From NCBI GenBank assembly GCA_026395685.1, contig JAPLYG010000016.1, positions 1,035 through 65,034 of the forward strand: a stretch of 64,000 nucleotides of DNA. Reading direction: 5' to 3'. Both the position numbers and the translations under genes were made by a program. This document shows, piece by piece, positions 2,758-55,006 of the stretch (position 1 is the stretch's first letter; every line of letters begins with the position of its first letter). The DNA is from Candidatus Parcubacteria bacterium. Lineage in GTDB: Bacteria > Patescibacteriota > Patescibacteriia > CAIXNZ01. A model generated the notes under the pieces. That model had not been told where the DNA came from and did no database searches. It saw only the letters and a list, made by a program, of their open reading frames with translations.

Positions 2758-3978
2758 TTATTCATATCTAAGCGCCTCAATCGGATTCAAATTCGCTGCC
2801 CGGCGCGCCGGATAATAACCGAAAATAATACCGATTGCTGCTGAGACACCAAACGCTAATAAAATAGAAGACAGTGAAATACTGGTGGCAATACCACCAA
2901 AAATTCTCATACCAATGGAAATCAGCCAGCCGACTATAATGCCTATAATGCCTCCAAAAAAAGTTAAAGTAATTGCTTCAGCTAAAAACTGGCGGCTGAT
3001 CTCAATCTTCTTAGCTCCGATAGCTTTACGCAAACCTATTTCCCTGGTTCTTTCTGTCACATTGGTCAACATCATATTCATAATACCAATACCTCCGACA
3101 ACTAAAGAAATAGCGGCTACTGATGCTAAAAGCATTGTAAAGGTATTGGTAACAGAAGAAGCGGTTTCCACAATATCCGACTGATTCATGATGCTGAAAT
3201 CCGCTGAATCTGAATCTGTAATATTATGGCGAGACATTAATAAATCAGTAATTTCCTGTTCCAAGTTCGACATTGATTTTTCATCATAAGCCTGGACATT
3301 TATGGAATTGACACGCTGGTTGCCTGCCAAAAATTGCTGGGCGGTTGTCATGGGAACAAAAATAATATCATCCTGATTGCTGAAACCAGTACCTCCCTTA
3401 GAGACTGTAACTCCGACTATTTTAAATTCTATTTTATTGATACGTATTGTCTGGCCGACAGGATCAGCATCTTCACCGAAAAGATCATCTCTGACTGAGG
3501 GACCAAGCACTGCTACCCTAGCCATACTGGTTAAATTTTGAGCCGTAATAAAAACCCCGCTTTCAATTTCAATATTTCTGACTGCCGGGTAATCTGCCGT
3601 AACGCCGCTAACCGAGGTATTAGTATTAGTACCTTTGGCAGTTACCTGATAACGTCCTGATACTACCGGCGCTACAGCCTGGGCAGTGGTTTCAGTTCCT
3701 ATCGCATCAGCATCTTCCAGAGTTAAAGTCTGGGCAGAACCGCGGCCTTGGCTGACTTGAGTTCCAGCTCCCCGCTGAAAACCTGGCTGTACCATAATCA
3801 GATTGGAACCAAGATTTTGAATATTTGACTGAATACTTTGCTGTGAGCCCTGACCGATCGCAATCATCGCAATTACTGAACCGATACCGATAACAATGCC
3901 CAAAATGGTCAGGCCGGAACGGGCTTTATTGGTAATCAAAGCTGAATATGTTTCTGAGATTAAATCAGATGTTTTCAT
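2758..3978 (-). CDS. ABC transporter permease, MacB/FtsX-like
   Basis: N-terminal TM, large extracytoplasmic domain, C-terminal FtsX-type 4-TM bundle; directly downstream of ABC ATPase. Confidence 0.7.
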   Translation of the reverse strand: MKTSDLISETYSALITNKARSGLTILGIVIGIGSVIAMIAIGQGSQQSIQSNIQNLGSNLIMVQPGFQRGAGTQVSQGRGSAQTLTLEDADAIGTETTAQAVAPVVSGRYQVTAKGTNTNTSVSGVTADYPAVRNIEIESGVFITAQNLTSMARVAVLGPSVRDDLFGEDADPVGQTIRINKIEFKIVGVTVSKGGTGFSNQDDIIFVPMTTAQQFLAGNQRVNSINVQAYDEKSMSNLEQEITDLLMSRHNITDSDSADFSIMNQSDIVETASSVTNTFTMLLASVAAISLVVGGIGIMNMMLTNVTERTREIGLRKAIGAKKIEISRQFLAEAITLTFFGGIIGIIVGWLISIGMRIFGGIATSISLSSILLAFGVSAAIGIIFGYYPARRAANLNPIEALRYE

Positions 3979-10036: not shown

Positions 10037-10108
10037 TGGGGAGTCGCCAAGTGGTAAGGCACCGCCCTTTGGAGGCGGCATTCATAGGTTCGAATCCTAT
10101 CTCCCCAG
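10037..10108 (+). tRNA. tRNA-Gln (anticodon TTG)
   Basis: Cloverleaf folded by hand; near-identical architecture to E. coli tRNA-Gln (UGGGG...CCCCAG), anticodon loop CTTTGGA. Confidence 0.85.
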
Positions 10109-10205
10109 CCTTCGTTCGCCGTAGCCCTGCTCCGCAGGGCGAAGGCGAACCTTCGCTTCAAAGTTTTGCCGGTACTACGGCGAACTTCGGCTGGTTTAGA
10201 CCAGC
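10106..10205. repeat. Copy A of ~100-nt GC-rich structured repeat (20-bp inverted arms CCAGCCTTCGTTCGCCGTAG / CTACGGCGAACTTCGGCTGG plus internal hairpins), overlapping tRNA-Gln 3' end
   Basis: Direct comparison with copy B at 11183-11285 (~95% identical). Confidence 0.7.
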
Positions 10206-10260
10206 TATATGTGGATATAACTTTCGACAGGCTTCGGCTGGCTCGGGCCAGCTAAATTAT

Positions 10261-10500
10261 ATGAAAATAGTTTATATAATTCAAAGTCAAAAAGACTTCA
10301 GTACTTATATCGGTGTTACTTCTGACTTAGAGGATCGTTTAAAACGCCATAACCATGGCGAAGTTTATACAACTAAAACAAGGATACCGTGGAAAATAAT
10401 TTGCTATTTTACTTTTACTTATAATCAGACCACTTACGATTTTGAGAGGTATTTAAAAACAGGAAGTGGTAGAGCTTTTCTTAATAAACATTTGTTATAA
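10261..10500 (+). CDS. Small GIY-YIG nuclease-domain protein (UPF0213/YazA-like)
   Basis: 'IVYIIQSQKDFSTYIGVTSDLEDRLKRHNHG' matches GIY-YIG signature; the longer track ORF 10036-10500 reads through the tRNA and is spurious. Confidence 0.65.
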   Translation: MKIVYIIQSQKDFSTYIGVTSDLEDRLKRHNHGEVYTTKTRIPWKIICYFTFTYNQTTYDFERYLKTGSGRAFLNKHLL

Positions 10501-10638: not shown

Positions 10639-11073
10639 ATGGAATTCTTTATGAGTTTTGAAGAAGATGGCACGAAACCAGAGGATAAATGTGGGGAAAA
10701 GGCTCGAGAAGCAAGGATTGCAGTTGAGCCAAAGATTATAGATCTTGTAAAAAATCGAACATACAGCTCAATTATTCATAGAATTGCTATTATACCTGTA
10801 ATATATAGTCAAGAACTTTTAATAAAATTTCCTGCTCCTGAAAGAAAATACATTTCACATAAAAATGGTTTTGCTGATTTTCGTTTGTACGTTGACTATG
10901 AAAAATTTATTAATACCTCAGATGATGGCAGAGTTAAGCTTTTGTTAAAAAATATAATTGATTCAATAAGAATAATTTCAGCACGTCTTAAGAAAGATAT
11001 TAAGGGTGAAGAACTCGAAAATGATATTTTATCTCTATTTAATTATAATTACGAACAACTAAATGCTGTCTAA
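10639..11073 (+). CDS. Hypothetical protein (144 aa) inside repeat-bounded module
   Basis: ORF with upstream AT-rich region; no recognisable motifs. Confidence 0.4.
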   Translation: MEFFMSFEEDGTKPEDKCGEKAREARIAVEPKIIDLVKNRTYSSIIHRIAIIPVIYSQELLIKFPAPERKYISHKNGFADFRLYVDYEKFINTSDDGRVKLLLKNIIDSIRIISARLKKDIKGEELENDILSLFNYNYEQLNAV

Positions 11074-11182: not shown

Positions 11183-11285
11183 CAGCCTTCGTTCGCCGTA
11201 GCCCTGCTCCGCAGGGTGAAGGCGAACCTTCGCTTAAAAATTTTGCCGGTACTACGGCGAACTTCGGCTGGCTTTGGCCAGCCAT
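11183..11285. repeat. Copy B of the ~100-nt structured repeat
   Basis: See copy A; ends with GGCTGGCTTTGGCCAGCC hairpin. Confidence 0.7.
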
Positions 11286-35712: not shown

Positions 35713-35774
35713 ATTCTATTACCCCGCGCCCTCTGTAGCTTTAGCGTAAGAGGGCTTAATATTTAATTTTTATA

Positions 35775-36650
35775 TTAAAATTTAACCGGCACTGAAACTA
35801 AATCCTTTTCTGTTTGACCGTCCATTAAAAATACCTCAACAAAACCTTCTTTCGTTGTGGAAAATTCATAACTAACCTTTAAACTAAAATCTCCATACCC
35901 GTCTGAACCGACATTTTTTACAGATCCTGAAATATTTATCAGAGGTTGCCCACTCGCACTTTTTACCCGGACATAGACTTTATTGTCAGTAGCTTTAGCT
36001 CTGCCTTCTATCTGAATCGGAGAACTCAATTGCTGATCAGCAACCGGCATCGTCACAGTCAGATCCTTGGTTGATGTAATATTAGTTGAAGTAATGTTCT
36101 CTTTAGCTGGATCCTGTGCGCAATCTTCATATCTTATTAAAACATTATCACAGGTGTTATACCACCCTTCACTTCTGGTTCCAATTAAGCGGCATTCTTT
36201 AAAACATTTACCCTTGAGGCATTCACCGCGAAAATATGCCCATTCATCACAAATACTTTGGTCACTAAAAACACACAGGCCAGCCTCTCCGCCTGTTGTC
36301 TGATAATTTTCAGATTTGCCGCCGTCAGCCTGACATTTTACAGATGCCGGATTTGCGATCTGAGTGTTAACATTCGTATTAACATTTGAATTGGCATCCT
36401 TATTCTCATTAATATTTACCTTCTCTGTTTCAGTTTCTTTTACATTATCCTCCTTGATCATTACCTTCAAGGTACACCAACCGGGCAAATAATCATCGCC
36501 CTGAAAAGCGTTAATTACGCTGCATAAAGGTGAAAATGCTTTGGCCCAAACACCGCCGGGTGAAAAAGGTACGCAAAAATAAACAACAAAAAAAAGAATC
36601 AACAGAATATTTAATAAAATAGACAATTTACTTGCTGTTTTTGATTTCAT
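35775..36650 (-). CDS. Secreted Cys-rich protein with DUF333-like (putative hemolysin) segment
   Basis: Signal/TM N-terminus; 'GLCVFSDQSICDEWAYFRGEC' resembles DUF333; TATAAT -10 on minus strand at ~36680. Confidence 0.4.
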   Translation of the reverse strand: MKSKTASKLSILLNILLILFFVVYFCVPFSPGGVWAKAFSPLCSVINAFQGDDYLPGWCTLKVMIKEDNVKETETEKVNINENKDANSNVNTNVNTQIANPASVKCQADGGKSENYQTTGGEAGLCVFSDQSICDEWAYFRGECLKGKCFKECRLIGTRSEGWYNTCDNVLIRYEDCAQDPAKENITSTNITSTKDLTVTMPVADQQLSSPIQIEGRAKATDNKVYVRVKSASGQPLINISGSVKNVGSDGYGDFSLKVSYEFSTTKEGFVEVFLMDGQTEKDLVSVPVKF

Positions 36651-36788
36651 ATTTTTTCAAATTTAATAATTAAGGCTGAATATATTATAGCACAAATCCT
36701 TTAAAAATGTTAATTAGTTTATTAGTTAATTGGTATATTCGTAGCTAATTCGTAACAATAATAAAAGCCCGTCGGTTTCCCGCGGGCA

Positions 36789-39210: not shown

Positions 39211-39238
39211 CCAAAAAAGAGGGCAAATACCCTCTTTA
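39211..39238 (-). terminator. Rho-independent terminator downstream of mraY (AAGAGGG-caaata-CCCTCTT + T-run)
   Basis: Perfect 7-bp GC-rich stem followed by U-run on minus strand. Confidence 0.55.
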
Positions 39239-39374
39239 AACTTCAACCTTCATACTTCAGACTTTGGCCTTAAAAATATTACTCCTAAATTATATCAGCC
39301 AAAGGCTGATCCGCCTCTGGCGGAAACTTCCAATTGTAATTTTACATTTTACATTTTGCACTTTAAACTTTTAA

Positions 39375-40826: not shown

Positions 40827-40954
40827 GGATTTAAGTCTAAAGTTAAAAGTCTAAAGTCTAAAGTTGTGAGAATTTACTTTATTTTAGCACAATACCTCTA
40901 AAAATAAAAGTCCCGATTTCCCAGAGTTCTTATTTGTATTCTAAATATTTTTAC

Positions 40955-42214
40955 TCAATTTTTTCGTTTTAAGGGCGACATTTCACGCAGCCTTTTTACA
41001 ATAGCCGGCAAAACTTCGATTACCCTGTCAATTTCCTTGGCAGTAGTTCCCTTGCCCAGGGTAAAGCGCAAAGATGCGTGGCAATCTTCAGCCGGAATAT
41101 CCATGGCGCGTAAAACATGAGAGGGTTCCAAGGAGCCGGAAGCGCAGGCTGAACCAGTAGAAACCGCAATACCTTCCAAATCAAGCATCAAAAGCATACT
41201 CTCCCCTTCAGCACCTAAAAAGCTGATATTCGCATTGCCTGGTACGCGTTTTTCCAAATTACCGTTAATTTGAGTATCGGGAATTTTCTTCGTTAAACCC
41301 GCAATCAATTTATCCCTTAATTTTCCAATTTTATCGTTTATTTCTGTTTGCTCTTTATTTACCAATTCTATTGCCACGCCCAAACCGACAATTCCAGCGA
41401 CATTATAAGTCCCCGGCCTGATATTATATTCCTGATGTCCACCAAAAATAATGGACTTAATCGGCGTGCCTTCTTTGATGTACAAAGCTCCAATTCCTTT
41501 GGGTCCGTAAATTTTATGTCCGGAAATTGTAATAAAATCAGTTTTTAAATAATCCGCCTTCATCGGGCAATAATTAACCGCCTGCACTGCATCAGTGTGA
41601 AAATAAATCTTATCATACAAATCCTTCGGACTTCGTACTTCGGACTTCGGCCTTCGTTTTAAGTTCGCCTTTTCAACAATTTCCCCGATTTTACGGATGG
41701 GCTGAATCGTTCCGATCTCATTATTAACATACATAATGGAAACCAAAATCGTATTGTCTTTAATTGCTTCTTTTATTTCATTTATTTTAACAACCCCATT
41801 AGAATCAACATTAACGAAAGTCACTTCAGCTAATCCTTCTTTTACCAATTCCTGACAAACCTCCAAAATTGCCGGGTGTTCAATTTTTGAAGTAATAATA
41901 TGAAATTTCTTGTCCTCCGGAGCTTTAGCGGAGGAGGATTCTTTTTTAGCGTTGCGAAATGCCATGAGCAAGCCGCGCAAGACCAGATTATTGCTTTCAG
42001 TCGCTCCGGAAGTAAAAATTACCTCCTTGAACTTGCAGCCAAAAAGATTAGCCAGCTGTTCCCTGGCCCAATCAACACCTTTAATCGCTTCTTGACCAAA
42101 GGAATGCAATGAGGACGCATTACCAAAAATATCAGTAAGATATGGCTGCATTTTTTTTAGAACTTGCGGATCAAGCGGCGTAGTCGCAGAATGATCCAAA
42201 TATATCTTTTCCAT
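40955..42214 (-). CDS. iscS: Cysteine desulfurase (IscS/NifS class V aminotransferase) with short repeat-encoded insertion
   Basis: 'ITSKIEHPAILE', PLP-lysine 'ISGHKIYGPKGIGALYI', active-site 'SGSACAS'; ~19-aa insertion encoded by ACTTCG microrepeat at 41620-41660. Confidence 0.8.
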   Translation of the reverse strand: MEKIYLDHSATTPLDPQVLKKMQPYLTDIFGNASSLHSFGQEAIKGVDWAREQLANLFGCKFKEVIFTSGATESNNLVLRGLLMAFRNAKKESSSAKAPEDKKFHIITSKIEHPAILEVCQELVKEGLAEVTFVNVDSNGVVKINEIKEAIKDNTILVSIMYVNNEIGTIQPIRKIGEIVEKANLKRRPKSEVRSPKDLYDKIYFHTDAVQAVNYCPMKADYLKTDFITISGHKIYGPKGIGALYIKEGTPIKSIIFGGHQEYNIRPGTYNVAGIVGLGVAIELVNKEQTEINDKIGKLRDKLIAGLTKKIPDTQINGNLEKRVPGNANISFLGAEGESMLLMLDLEGIAVSTGSACASGSLEPSHVLRAMDIPAEDCHASLRFTLGKGTTAKEIDRVIEVLPAIVKRLREMSPLKRKN

Positions 42215-42335
42215 ATTAGTTTATTAGTTAATTGGTTAATCAGTTTATTAGTCAAGCAACCTTATACAACTTTATAAAACCTAATACAACCTCATATAAC
42301 TTCCTTTTTCATACTTCGGCCTTCATCCTTAGGCC

Positions 42336-42560
42336 TTAAACCGCAATCACCTCTTTGACGCCTTTAACCTCTTTTTTAATCTGAGCCTCAATCCCCATCT
42401 TCAAAGTCATCTGCGACATGGGACAGTGAGCGCAGTGGCCGAGCAATTTAACTTTCACAATCCCCTTTTTTTCATCAACATCAACCAACTCCACATCCCC
42501 TCCATCCATCTGAAGTCCCGGCCTGACTTCTTCTAAAATTTTCTCAATTTGTTTTTTCAT
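42336..42560 (-). CDS. Nfu/NifU C-terminal-domain Fe-S carrier protein
   Basis: 'VRPGLQMDGGDVELVDVD...GHCAHCPMSQMTLK' CxxC Nfu signature. Confidence 0.7.
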   Translation of the reverse strand: MKKQIEKILEEVRPGLQMDGGDVELVDVDEKKGIVKVKLLGHCAHCPMSQMTLKMGIEAQIKKEVKGVKEVIAV

Positions 42561-42577
42561 AATGTTGTATTATTACA

Positions 42578-43149
42578 GGGGACTTTAGTCCCCGTTTGAT
42601 TTATTTAATATTTATATTTTTCAACAGGCAAATTCAATTCCCAATTTAAATTTTTCACATTTCCAATAATTTCCAAGATTGATTTTTTCTCATATTTCGT
42701 TAACAAATTATTATAATTTGAATACTCATATTTATTTAGATCATAAATATCCTCAACCAATCCATGTTTCCAGGGGTTCCCCAGTATATACCCCATAACC
42801 TTATAATATGCTTCCTGATTAAAAACATTACTAATATAATAACTATCCCAAATTGGTTTTGATATATTTTCCAGTAAAAAAGAAACACCACCATTAATCT
42901 TTTGAATAATTTTTGGCACATCCTTACCAGTCTTTAAGTAAAAAAGAATATGGTAATGATTCCTTAAAATACAATAAGAGTCATAAGAAAAATCATAAAT
43001 TGATTGCATTGATAAAATTTTTCCCAAAAGAAGCTTCCTATTATCTTCATTCTCAAAACAATTCAGACCATCAATAGTTCTACTTGTTAAAAAATAATAG
43101 TTATAGTCAAGATAGAATTTCATATTGTCTTACGCAGACTAAAGTCTGC
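42578..43149 (-). mobile_element. IS200/IS605-family-like unit: Y1 (HUH) transposase/RAYT-like ORF (42605-43123) flanked by subterminal hairpins GGGGACTTTAGTCCCC (42578-42593) and GCAGACTAAAGTCTGC (43134-43149)
   Basis: Translation shows 'NHYHIL' HUH motif, 'YILGNPWKHGLV' and C-terminal Tyr-rich helix typical of IS200-like/REP-associated tyrosine transposases; flanking palindromes share the GACT-TTA-AGTC core in opposite orientation. Confidence 0.5.
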
Positions 43150-43163
43150 TATAATAATTCATA

Positions 43164-43586
43164 TTAACAGTGCGCATGTTCCTCTTCTTCCAATTTTTCC
43201 GTAAAAGTCTCCCCGCGATAATCAGCCACGGCTTTTTTCAGTCCAGCTGCCGCCAAAACAGAACAGTGAATTTTTTCTTTGGGCATACCGCCAAGCTTTT
43301 CCGCAATCTGCTCGCGGGTAATTTTTAAAGCCTCTTCAATTGTTTTACCTTTTGCCATTTCAGTCAGCATCGAAGATGAGGCAATGGCAGCGCCGCAGCC
43401 TAGAGTTTGGAATTTAATGTCTTTGATAATTTCTTCGCCTTTCTCGTTTTTATCAACCTCAATATAAATCTTCATCATATCACCGCAGACAGGATTACCT
43501 ACTTCGCCCACGCCATCAGGACTTGCTAATTCGCCCTGATTGCGCGGATTTTTGAAATGGTCCATTAAAATTTGAGTGTATTGCAT
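43164..43586 (-). CDS. iscU: Fe-S cluster scaffold IscU
   Basis: 'GNPVCGDMMKIYI', 'LGCGAAIASSS', 'HC' C-terminus. Confidence 0.85.
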   Translation of the reverse strand: MQYTQILMDHFKNPRNQGELASPDGVGEVGNPVCGDMMKIYIEVDKNEKGEEIIKDIKFQTLGCGAAIASSSMLTEMAKGKTIEEALKITREQIAEKLGGMPKEKIHCSVLAAAGLKKAVADYRGETFTEKLEEEEHAHC

Positions 43587-43674
43587 ATTTTTTAAGGCCG
43601 AGGTCTCAAGGATGAAGTCTGGATTATTTTATAATCTTCAAATTACTTCATACTTCGTACTTCGTGCTTCATAC

Positions 43675-44118
43675 TTATTTAATTAAATCGCTTAATTTAA
43701 TTGAATTCAAAGTTTTACTAATGCCCTGATCCAGCTTTTGCCACACAATCTTACTCTGGCAATCACATCCTTTTTTTGCGCATAAACCGCCGATCCCGGC
43801 GCAAACATATGGGGCCAAACTACCTTCTAACGCTGTAAGAATATCCTTTACTGAAATCCTTAGCGCAGGCTTGGCTAATTTATATCCGCCGTTAACGCCT
43901 TTAACACTCACCACTATCTTGGCCCTTTTCAATTTGGCAAAAAGACGCTCCAAATAAGCCAAAGAGATTTTTTCTTCCTTGGCAATTTTAGCTAGTGAAT
44001 AAGGCACATTTCCCTGATTTTTCGACAAATTTACCAATGCCCTTAATCCGTATTCAGATTTTGTGGAAAACATCATATCTTTCGGCCTTTGGACTTCATC
44101 CTTCGGCCTTAATTCCAA
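43675..44118 (-). CDS. iscR: Rrf2-family regulator (IscR-like) with C-terminal Cys cluster
   Basis: 'SEYGLRALVNL' Rrf2 HTH; 'CAGIGGLCAKKGCDC'. Confidence 0.75.
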   Translation of the reverse strand: MELRPKDEVQRPKDMMFSTKSEYGLRALVNLSKNQGNVPYSLAKIAKEEKISLAYLERLFAKLKRAKIVVSVKGVNGGYKLAKPALRISVKDILTALEGSLAPYVCAGIGGLCAKKGCDCQSKIVWQKLDQGISKTLNSIKLSDLIK

Positions 44119-44307
44119 CCAATTTAGTTGGTATTCATATTATATCCGCTTATAACCAGATAGTCAAGCCAACTTATTGACAGCCATTTCAAAATCTGTT
44201 AAACTATTTTTATAAAATATTAAGGTGCAGAGGCAGTTTACGGCAGACGCTTTACCGTCAGACGAAACAGCCATCAAAACCTTTTAACAATTAATGATCT
44301 AAAAGAT

Positions 44308-52576: not shown

Positions 52577-52975
52577 TTAATTGCCAAATAATCCTGCCCA
52601 AAAGCCCTTGCTCTCCGAAGCTTTAGCAGAGGAGGGTTTTTCAGATTCAGAATCGTTTTCATCATCTGACGCTTTATCTGCAGCTAGAACTATATTATAG
52701 ATTCGCTGCGCTTCTTGCTTTACCAAATCTGAATCATAATCTCCGCTATGAGCGGTATAACCTTCGTATGAAACTTTTTTCTGGTCCAAATGCAAACTCA
52801 AAATTAACGGATCTTCGGAATTAATATACATATGAAAACGCGGATAAAAATCAGAACGCAATCTTTTTACGTAACTGGTTTCTCTGGTGCGCGAATCTCT
52901 AATCTGGCCATAACCGCAGCGTCTGACCAAAAAATCAGCATTTTTATTAAATTTTTGGTTAAATGGAATTTTCAT
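52577..52975 (-). CDS. Hypothetical protein with acidic Ser/Asp-rich tail
   Basis: ORF only. Confidence 0.35.
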   Translation of the reverse strand: MKIPFNQKFNKNADFLVRRCGYGQIRDSRTRETSYVKRLRSDFYPRFHMYINSEDPLILSLHLDQKKVSYEGYTAHSGDYDSDLVKQEAQRIYNIVLAADKASDDENDSESEKPSSAKASESKGFWAGLFGN

Positions 52976-53754: not shown

Positions 53755-54924
53755 ATGAAGAAAATCACCGCATTCACGGCCATGGCGGTCATGATTCTCA
53801 TGACCATGCTCTCGGGCTGCACCAAGCCCGCCCCCGGCAACGGCAACAACCCCATCGGCGCCCAGCCCAACGACCCCCGCGCGTCCGAAATGACCGTCTC
53901 GTGGACCTACGACACCCCCGGCTCGCTCAAGTGGGAATCCGGAGACCTGACCCCCATCAAGGACAGCGACGACGGCCTCTGGAAAATGCTCTACGACCCG
54001 GCCGGCGTCAGCCCGACCGCCATTACCCCCGGCTTTCCGCCGGGCTACGTGGCCATCGGTGGTGACGCGATCAACCCGACCTGCAATAACCCGTACAACC
54101 CCGCGTGTCGGACGGACATCTCGTCCAACTGCACCAACGGCGTCTGCACGGCGTCCGTGAATCTGCCCATCGGCTCCTGGAACGGCATCTGGTTCTGGTA
54201 TGATGGTCAGGTACGCGTCGACCACATCACGCTTTCCGCCGGGACCCAGTCCTGGCCGCTCGTCAACTACTCCGTGATCGCCGGCGATACCGCTCCGACT
54301 ACCAATCCGCTGCACCAGTCCTGGGTCGCAGCCTGTGTCCGCATCGACAGACCCACGCCCACGACCATCGACGTCAACCGCGACGTCGCCAATAACGCCA
54401 GGTGCCAGGAAGTGATCTACAACATCGAAATCTGGGCCAACGGCGACTCCAGCGTGAACGTCCTCGACGACAAGTTCGTTCCCTGGAACGGTCTGCAGGC
54501 TCACGAAGGAGACATGAAGATCAAGTCAACGCTTCTGCCTCCGACCGTACAGTCCGGCAGTACCCTATTCCCGAGAATCGTGTGGAACACCAACGCGTAC
54601 ATCCACCGCATCTCGAGCGTGGCCGCTTCGAGTTCCTGGTGGCTCGCCTTCTACAGCCATGACCGGGGCGACACCGCGCCGCCCAATCTGCTGTCCCCGA
54701 TCCACGGCGGCGTGTCCATTCGCACCTACCGCTACGGCGCCGGCTGGGCCATCCCGACCACGCCCAACTGCACCACCGAGCTCCAGAACATGATCAACCT
54801 GAATACGATCAACCCGCTGCTCGAGCCATTCTACGTCCTGCAAGTGACGGGTATCAACACCACGTCCAACTGCGTCACCCAGGGCGTGGACACCCGAAGC
54901 CAGATCTTCGGATTCGCAAATTAG
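53755..54924 (+). CDS. High-GC lipoprotein of unknown function (lipobox LSGC), Cys/Trp/Pro/Thr-rich, compositionally foreign
   Basis: RBS AAAGGAG 9 nt upstream; 'MKKITAFTAMAVMILMTMLSGC' signal; GC ~65% with third positions almost all G/C versus ~33% GC flanks; two hairpins after stop. Confidence 0.6.
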   Translation: MKKITAFTAMAVMILMTMLSGCTKPAPGNGNNPIGAQPNDPRASEMTVSWTYDTPGSLKWESGDLTPIKDSDDGLWKMLYDPAGVSPTAITPGFPPGYVAIGGDAINPTCNNPYNPACRTDISSNCTNGVCTASVNLPIGSWNGIWFWYDGQVRVDHITLSAGTQSWPLVNYSVIAGDTAPTTNPLHQSWVAACVRIDRPTPTTIDVNRDVANNARCQEVIYNIEIWANGDSSVNVLDDKFVPWNGLQAHEGDMKIKSTLLPPTVQSGSTLFPRIVWNTNAYIHRISSVAASSSWWLAFYSHDRGDTAPPNLLSPIHGGVSIRTYRYGAGWAIPTTPNCTTELQNMINLNTINPLLEPFYVLQVTGINTTSNCVTQGVDTRSQIFGFAN

Positions 54925-55006
54925 GGGTTGCCTCCCCCTACTTGACCAAAAGCCCCAGGTACTTCGGTACTTGGGGCTTTAAAATTGATTTTTTAGGCTA
55001 ATATCT

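Follow-up and report, generated by a model that had tools for sequence, protein, structure and literature searches.

The iscS gene of an uncultured Parcubacteria genome carries, in frame, five head-to-tail heptamers that encode a loop missing from solved homologues, and this array, a degenerate simple-sequence repeat of heptanucleotides, was probably born in place, in a surface loop that is permissive and rich in lysine. The gene lies in a 64,000-nucleotide stretch of Candidatus Parcubacteria bacterium (assembly GCA_026395685.1, contig JAPLYG010000016.1, positions 1,035 to 65,034), referred to below as the window, in which the G+C content is 37%, the majority of genes are on the reverse strand, and an isc-type operon runs on that strand between 44.1 and 40.9 kb (Table 1). 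We concluded that the array is clear but ordinary bacterial simple-sequence DNA that belongs to the known heptameric repeats. Its tandem structure, a series of two-unit versus five-unit alleles in related genomes, its start at a conserved arginine codon, its patchy presence among sister sequences and an excess of period-7 arrays in these genomes are all direct observations. A first-pass annotation of this DNA had put forward a short repeat able to move and to land in frame within an essential enzyme, with slippage-prone simple-sequence DNA as the alternative; the allelic series, the arginine-codon start and the period-7 excess support that alternative.

The array in iscS and its alleles

The tandem ACTTCG-type units annotated at 41620-41660 resolve into five heptamers at 41622-41656, which read tccttcg gacttcg tacttcg gacttcg gccttcg on the forward strand and CGAAGGC CGAAGTC CGAAGTA CGAAGTC CGAAGGA on the coding, reverse strand. 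Tandem Repeats Finder (TRF) assigned a period of 7, 4.7 copies and 88% matches to positions 41624-41656, a heptanucleotide tandem repeat being one of at least three copies. The units are imperfect and occupy codons 187-198 of the 419. Since three heptads span 21 nt, each unit is read in all three frames, as P-K, S-E-V and R-S; the resulting peptide is RRPKSEVRSPKD, embedded as ...NLKRRPKSEVRSPKDLYDK... in the 419-residue open reading frame (ORF). The transcript of 41600-41680 on the reverse strand folds into no structure (z -0.35), no inverted repeat at the array appeared in the hairpin list, and the array is without terminal inverted repeats and without a target duplication.

The host protein matched IscS/NFS1 structures in the PDB with E values of 1e-92 to 2e-96 and the NCBIfam models FeS_nifS and IscS with 488.6 and 403 bits, both under the equivalog cut-offs. 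An exact-sequence look-up of the protein gave no match; a homology search returned one sequence of 100% identity (P0001, 'MAG: Candidatus Parcubacteria bacterium'), which forms a single-member cluster. The host protein is encoded by the only NifS/IscS-type cysteine desulfurase gene seen within the isc operon. Compared with the solved IscS/NFS1 structures it has two extra stretches, at residues ~88-101 (site 1) and ~181-198 (site 2), with a gap of 13-18 residues opposite the part encoded by the array; the annotated view of the loop as an insertion relative to other IscS proteins is correct. Our AlphaFold2 model, built on 68 homologues, had a mean pLDDT (predicted local distance difference test) of 87.5, falling to 66 in the coil at residues 191-200 and to 56 in that at 91-100. 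The second insert comes after a helix at 173-187 and ahead of the strand that bears the invariant D208 and Q211. The product of the array is predicted to be a low-confidence coil loop in an otherwise confident model.

Homologues of 60-86% identity were hypervariable exactly at the two places where the window IscS has its inserts, and we compared the orthologous loci as DNA from the conserved Arg187 codon onward. Two of them have no loop: L202 reads aaa CGCAAAA TTAAAAA TTCATTTGAT and L002 reads aaa CGAAAAT TGAAAAA TGCCTTTGAT, so that both insert-free genes already hold two proto-units at the site of the array. Five units are found in L201 (aaa CGAAAGC TGAAAGC TGAAAGC TTAAAGC TGAAAAA TTCATTTGAT), in L203 (aaa CGAAGTC CGAAGTC TGAAGTC CGAAGTC CGAATAG) and in the window (aaa followed by the five units given above), and in all three the conserved Arg codon opens the array and the same downstream sequence closes it. 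The step between two-unit and five-unit alleles is exactly +3 units (21 nt, or 7 amino acids) with identical flanks, and the first unit consists of the conserved Arg187 codon plus the next four nucleotides (CGA + AAGN). The loop-bearing orthologues L203 and L001 also carry the repeat, rather than the same loop in DNA that is not repeat-like.

In more distant homologues, of 47-72% identity, this site is also occupied by lag-7 arrays, made of other units, which start at their own AGA arginine codon: AGAATTA in L003 and L073, AGAATCA in L015 and AGAATGC in L048; in L057, CTTAAAT and CTGAAAT units are in register with the Arg codon. In a neighbour-joining tree of 60 homologues, insert-bearing and insert-free sequences were interleaved among sisters (P0003 with P0014, P0015 with P0020, and P0008/P0009 with P0012/P0013), which requires at least four events of gain or loss, and all of the more than 80 homologues examined were in frame. 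The pattern at site 2 is what tandem duplication on the spot leaves behind; an element that came from elsewhere would be expected to look otherwise.

The process that we favour would begin with tandem duplication of the heptamer that starts at the Arg187 codon. Slipped-strand mispairing, or template slippage or switching in replication, would make and remove units, and selection for the reading frame and for tolerance of the loop would filter the changes. In coding sequence the surviving net changes would be multiples of 3 nt and, for whole units, steps of three; since only three-unit steps hold the frame, the viable alleles would be those of two units (no loop) and of five units (the loop PKSEVRS+). 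The purine-rich sense unit is stop-free in every frame and encodes only hydrophilic residues, from which a tolerated, disordered loop would follow. Because such units (GAAG, AAAG) code for K, E, R and S, A-rich, lysine-rich loops would serve both as good seeds and as tolerant sites. The same process probably acts genome-wide in this Parcubacteria lineage, filling part of the spacers and recurring in three IscS loops of many relatives.

Table 1. Positions of the array, its host operon and the other features of the window discussed in the text.
Feature	Position	Strand	Basis or detail
95-nt direct repeat, rich in GC hairpins, holding the 'CTTCGGCTGG' hairpins	10108-10205 and 11185-11283
(TGAAGNN)x4 downstream of mraY, just ahead of terminator-like hairpin 39216-39237	39234-39265	-	TRF, lag-7 and pattern scans
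(GACTTTA)x5, a different unit, adjoining the start codon of the 128-aa gene that follows iscS	40831-40867	-	TRF, period 7, 4.6 copies
NifS/IscS-type class I cysteine desulfurase, 419 aa, host of the array	40955-42214	-	ORF, PDB and NCBIfam
In-frame (CGAAGNN)x5, 35 bases, IscS loop 'site 2'	41622-41656	-	sequence, TRF, lag-7 scan, relatives
Second in-frame insert, IscS 'site 1', SSSAKAPED	41913-41935		imperfect palindrome TCCTCCG-gagctttag-CGGAGGA, not heptads
(YNAAGNN)n directly after the nfu stop codon, nfu>iscS spacer	42300-42335	-	TRF (42308-42337), pattern scan
Nfu-like protein	42336-42560	-
RAYT-like Y1 transposase	42605-43123	-	Pfam/NCBIfam profiles
IscU/NifU	43164-43586	-
Opposite-orientation GAAG-type heptads AAGGCCG AGGTCTC AAGGATG AAGTC, iscR>iscU spacer	43594-43619	+
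(YGAAGYA)x4 overlapping the iscR stop codon, iscR>iscU spacer	43641-43677	-	TRF (43644-43676), period 7, 4.7 copies
Rrf2/IscR-like regulator	43675-44076; long ORF reaches 44118	-	profile search; Rrf2 profile begins at residue 15 of the long ORF
Degenerate (YRAAGKN)x4 in the iscR leader, between promoter-like 44167-44139 and the likely iscR start 44076	44081-44111	-
UUCG-loop hairpin between convergent genes	54949-54980	+	14 bp, -24.5 kcal/mol, z -6.0

Period-7 arrays in the window and in relatives

Arrays were counted with a self-match scan that required at least 17 of 21 matches and left out low-complexity sequence. In the 64 kb of the window this gave 7 arrays at lag 7 and 4 at lag 14, with 0-2 at the remaining lags of 4-13 and at 15, and shuffled sequences gave 0. 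For three close relatives (35.6 kb) the counts were 17 at lag 7 and 10 at lag 14, with 0-4 at the rest of lags 4-13 and at 15; for 75 related IscS loci (457 kb) they were 51 and 23, with 0-7 at the remaining lags. The flanks of stretches matching CGAAGNN are rich in other heptads and thus biased as a control, and E. coli K-12 was used instead: in 150 kb it had no lag-7 array, three at lag 6, one at lag 12 and none at the others. Based on these data, we concluded that among the short tandem repeats of these genomes, arrays of period 7 dominate. At a looser threshold, lag-7 arrays covered 6.0% of noncoding versus 0.2% of coding bases in the window.

The units are diverse. At least six types occur within the 64 kb (YGAAGNN, GACTTTA, GTAAAAT, TTTTTAA, RRGCTTN, AATNAGT and others), and a single dominant genome-wide unit of the STRR, TAACTGA or GGGAATC type was not found within the window. 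The unit of the iscS array is widespread: (CGAAGNN)x4 occurs in at least 120 stretches from many unrelated phyla, none labelled as belonging to the Candidate Phyla Radiation (CPR) among the matches listed, and the motif is therefore not a lineage-specific element. When the CGAAG arrays were removed from the 8-kb stretches with (CGAAGNN)n among the matches listed (L081-L200), 71 arrays at lag 7 and 55 at lag 14 remained, with 1-17 at other lags, which indicates that heptad arrays cluster by genome well beyond the CPR. Only tRNAs were found among the known RNA families of Rfam in the window, and no known RNA family thus accounts for the arrays.

A scan of the window for GAAGNNNGAAGNNNGAAG with at most one mismatch returned 14 matches, against 0.44 in dinucleotide-preserving shuffles, and with the excess at lag 7 this upholds the tandem family that the first-pass annotation had described. 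The matches fall into five clusters, all on the reverse strand and all between 39.2 and 44.1 kb (39234-39265, 41624-41655, 42300-42331, 43646-43677 and 44087-44111). Beside the iscS array, they include three sites annotated earlier (42303-42335, 43640-43675 and 44088-44112), which TRF and the pattern scan identified as period-7 arrays with the same GAAG core and strand, and a fifth array, downstream of mraY, that had been missing from that list; at the place equivalent to the last, L201 reads CGAAGTC CGAAGGC CGAAGTA. Only a YGAAG core of 4-5 nt is common to the five arrays. The array in the iscR leader is degenerate by TRF (44081-44110: period 7, 4.3 copies, 65% matches), and the long iscR ORF reads through it in its 14 extra codons.

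Several features of the spacers go beyond the presence of repeats. The (GACTTTA)x5 array, unstructured as RNA (z +1.2), keeps its position and unit in the window and in L002, L201, L202 and L203, abutting the start of the 128-residue gene in all five genomes, while the rest of that spacer diverges. The array after nfu has counterparts with the same core at the orthologous place in L001, L002 and L202, and numbers 3-5 units in these genomes and the window. The iscR>iscU spacer of relatives holds other heptad units; in the window, its forward-strand heptads pair in the transcript with the array at the iscR stop codon, and the whole spacer forms a long imperfect hairpin (-17.7 kcal/mol, z -3.3) that none of 200 shuffles equalled in stability. 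This layout of an array followed by an inverted array is shared with L202, with different units. Among close relatives, many of the spacers in the isc loci consist of heptads from stop codon to start codon, some as an array and then its inverted copy. The remainder of the nfu>iscS spacer (42215-42300) consists of tandem arrays of a 10-mer (CAACCTTATA-like) and an 8-mer (TATTAGTT-like) up to the iscS ATG, and its 22-nt attagtttattagttaattggt recurs at 36709-36739, upstream of gene 35775-36650.

These features raise the question of whether the arrays are kept for a purpose. In one reading, which we consider doubtful, period-7 arrays are a maintained architecture of spacers and leaders, their position kept, at times as an array with its inverted copy, while the units turn over, that would serve translation independent of Shine-Dalgarno (SD) motifs or mRNA processing, and the same generator would add seven-residue modules to three cysteine desulfurase loops. 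If this were true, IscS throughout the CPR would benefit from disordered, repeat-born loops or be their preferred sink. A related proposal, to our minds unlikely, makes the arrays themselves functional cis elements: unstructured leaders or standby sites for SD-poor initiation, intercistronic hairpins for mRNA stability or processing, or sites for a factor that reads a 7-nt register, with the iscS array as a by-product or a selected loop. The conserved and unstructured (GACTTTA)x5 leader and the stable iscR>iscU hairpin speak for this proposal, a strong SD-like motif (at most 18 nt from the start) was found in just 3 of 67 crude gene models of the window, and TAACTGA repeats of Beggiatoaceae lie just upstream of start codons in SD-less regions, with a post-transcriptional role proposed (PMC4679880). 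However, some arrays sit in loops of coding sequence, for which a role of this kind is meaningless; common descent with homogenisation by slippage can also conserve position; and SD motifs are so rare that a contrast between array-bearing and SD-bearing genes has too few cases. The units differ between sites, which makes a single sequence-specific reader unlikely. A cis-acting role confined to the spacer arrays is doubtful to unlikely on this evidence, and would leave the origin of the iscS array unchanged.

Operator sites for IscR/Rrf2 were also considered as an explanation of the heptad arrays and rejected on their known features. Known IscR sites are about 25 bp long and partly palindromic, and a palindrome in the iscR leader (CCAACCAATTTAGTTGG, 44115-44131) is the better candidate for an Rrf2/IscR operator. 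It follows a promoter-like site at 44139-44167 on the reverse strand (TTGACT-17-TATAAT, 11 of 12 matches), and a palindrome resembling it is also present in the leaders of L201 and L202.

Four sets of data weigh against the origin of the iscS array by slippage in place. Firstly, the five arrays within 5 kb have a common GAAG core and strand, where independent slippage from unrelated seeds predicts otherwise; since relatives have other units in two of these spacers, the account also needs some copying between arrays, a compositional bias towards purine-rich units or selection for the motif. Secondly, several spacer arrays keep both position and unit across species whose IscS is ~80% identical, while the neighbouring spacer does not, which hints at function rather than pure mutational noise. 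Thirdly, the arrays are degenerate (65-88% matches), and present-day rates of slippage may therefore be low. Finally, IscS is over-represented: the 51 lag-7 arrays of the related loci comprised 24 in IscS, 14 in ~311 kb of other coding DNA and 13 in 57 kb of noncoding DNA, so that IscS holds 24 of the 38 coding arrays at about six times the per-kb density of other coding DNA, although these arrays are not phylogenetically independent. Those in IscS fall in three hot spots (residues ~82-110, 167-216 and 258-295), the first of which, among the CPR relatives L001-L080, takes palindromes besides period-7 arrays. Permissive A-rich loops may be the cause of this density.

Palindromes, mobile elements and unrelated repeats

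[quoted passage not shown] The neighbourhood offers some material for this view beyond the five arrays of like core and orientation. Between iscU and nfu lies an IS200/Y1 transposase gene that resembles REP-associated tyrosine transposases (RAYTs) and scored 26 bits with Y1_Tnp (cut-off 23) and 66.6 bits, under the cut-off of 80, with REP_Tyr_transpos. On either side of it stand the hairpins GGGGAC-TTTA-GTCCCC (42578-42593) and GCAGAC-TAAA-GTCTGC (43134-43149). The operon of three close relatives is without this gene and has a (GTCTAAA)n array in that spacer, and the RAYT-like gene is an insertion peculiar to the window genome. In L001, moreover, the heptad array at site 2 (locus ~1060-1100) is interrupted by a 30-nt GC-rich palindrome, gccgcggagcggcatcccgctacgcggga, which encodes SRGAASRYAG and looks like a nested insertion.

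The insert at IscS site 1 is itself a palindrome with a GCTTTAGC core and CCTCC/GGAGG-like arms, opposite a 13-residue gap in PDB homologues. Similar palindromes with this core occur near 35742, in a spacer, and near 52624, in frame as PSSAKASES near the C-terminus of gene 52577-52975. Relatives have patchy 'SASAKASAD'-type inserts at site 1, and in other lineages the site is taken by different palindromes or by heptad arrays. This lineage thus probably has small palindromic elements that, like RPEs, insert themselves in frame, and these are distinct from the ACTTCG array.

For the heptad array, the mobile origin is nevertheless very improbable. The array starts with the conserved Arg codon, its flanks are the same as in the two-unit alleles, and its units differ by lineage in step with local codons; the reading fails because the array is made from local codons. 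Copies of an element should correspond over their full length, but only the 4-5 nt core is common to the arrays, and the same unit is found in many unrelated phyla. Neither terminal inverted repeats, a hairpin nor a target duplication mark an insertion, and what would be the empty sites already hold two proto-units. The annotated idea of a mobile repeat landing in an essential enzyme is contradicted on these grounds. A phase-variable contingency locus, in which gain or loss of a single heptad would switch IscS on and off, is hardly credible: the three-unit step does match the multiple-of-three arithmetic of neuO (PMC3046976, PMC13001214), but the array is imperfect, short (five units) and in mid-gene, its host is the only desulfurase gene of its type seen in the operon, and every homologue examined is in frame.

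The two palindromes at 2686-2713 (11 pairs) and 2717-2740 (9 pairs) are adjacent to each other between genes 2212-2697 and 2758-3978, and their centres, ACTTTAGT and ACTAAAGT, resemble those of the hairpins that flank the RAYT-like gene. A census of TTTA-centred palindromes in the window found 2 with at least seven pairs, versus 0-2 in shuffles, too few for a REP family.

Other sites that had been assigned to the repeat family do not belong to it. The one at 54946-54975 is a hairpin rather than a tandem array and was unmatched by the GAAGNNNGAAGNNNGAAG scan; it had also been called a terminator, and the hairpin is strong, with the tail TTTAAAATTGATTTTTT, but a consensus terminator scan makes no call there. 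It lies downstream of a gene (53755-54924, forward strand) of 59-63% G+C inside the 37% G+C window, which is likely to be foreign DNA. The 'CTTCGGCTGG hairpins' (10190-10252 and 11266-11283) are part of a separate 95-nt direct repeat, which begins at the 3' end of a tRNA (10037-10108) and brackets a GIY-YIG ORF (10264-10500) and an Imm44-like ORF (10639-11073), and this region is probably an integrated cassette with a duplicated attachment sequence.

Significance and comparison with known repeats

The allelic series gives a clean view of how a 7-nt repeat enters an essential gene: by growth in place, with survival only of three-unit steps, so that a ready-made hydrophilic loop of seven residues is gained or lost at one step. 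Two things go a little beyond the routine, namely that the series is in frame in an essential enzyme and that period 7 dominates in a CPR lineage. The case also shows period-7 arrays to be the leading short tandem repeat in a group of uncultured small-genome bacteria and a component of the spacers between their genes. In annotating CPR proteins, loops of this kind and odd N-terminal extensions are to be read as repeat-born; the long iscR ORF, with its 14 extra codons, is an example of the latter. If the spacer arrays are functional, they would have a bearing on translation start in SD-poor bacteria.

Our literature searches turned up no direct account of heptanucleotide repeats from the CPR, Parcubacteria or Patescibacteria. 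Heptameric repeats in bacteria at large were the subject of a 2007 survey, reportedly and presumably that of Mrazek et al. The 2007 survey is cited in PMC4692102 for the over-representation of heptameric simple-sequence repeats in bacteria, and the examples include GGGAATC of Xanthomonas, GGGGAYT of Nostoc and, in Calothrix, the STRR heptamers. It has also been suggested that the preference for heptamers is related to how long a stretch of DNA the polymerase active site holds. The arrays described here resemble those repeats in having tandem 7-nt units in about four copies, often heterogeneous, with a conserved core and two variable positions, in being mostly intergenic and near gene ends, and in varying in length and sequence between close relatives, for which polymerase slippage has been proposed. 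They differ in lacking a single genome-wide unit, with at least six types in 64 kb, in their small-genome Parcubacteria host, in the recurrence of in-frame arrays in an essential enzyme and in having no G-quadruplex potential.

A coding counterpart is the heptanucleotide variable-number tandem repeat (AAGACTC)n in neuO of the E. coli K1 CUS-3 prophage, whose protein is full-length only at multiples of three units (PMC3046976, PMC13001214). Both are coding heptanucleotide tandem repeats whose units are read in three frames and give a seven-residue protein repeat. In neuO, however, perfect repeats at the 5' end allow rapid on/off switching of an accessory gene, whereas the array in the window is degenerate, internal and fixed in frame in a housekeeping enzyme. 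Marine Beggiatoaceae, cyanobacteria and Bacteroidetes have TAACTGA direct repeats (PMC4679880), likewise heptamers, in 2-6 copies, that lie just upstream of start codons or overlap the upstream stop codon in regions where SD motifs are rare, and the few within ORFs are mainly at the protein periphery. They consist of one fixed genome-wide unit with stops in all frames in one orientation, whereas the window has many units and its genic ones are stop-free.

Short repeats in frame in housekeeping genes are reportedly also a property of the RPEs, in work said to be that of Ogata et al. 2000, and the cyanobacterial SDRs are said to have been treated by Elhai et al. 2008. MITEs of Coxiella are inserted in frame as well (PMC5896051). 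All of these share with the IscS loops the presence of short in-frame repeats in housekeeping genes, in surface segments, that vary in presence among orthologues. Unlike the heptad array, which is a local tandem duplication, they are dispersed palindromic elements of 20-150 nt conserved over their full length, and the likeness to RPEs fits the site-1 palindrome better than the array. The tandem repeats of Borgs are of independent origin, evolve fast and form intrinsically disordered regions (PMC9879509), and like them the array in iscS is a tandem nucleotide repeat within a gene that would add a disordered, hydrophilic segment. The array in iscS has a 7-nt unit that passes through three frames and would be viable only when three units come or go together.

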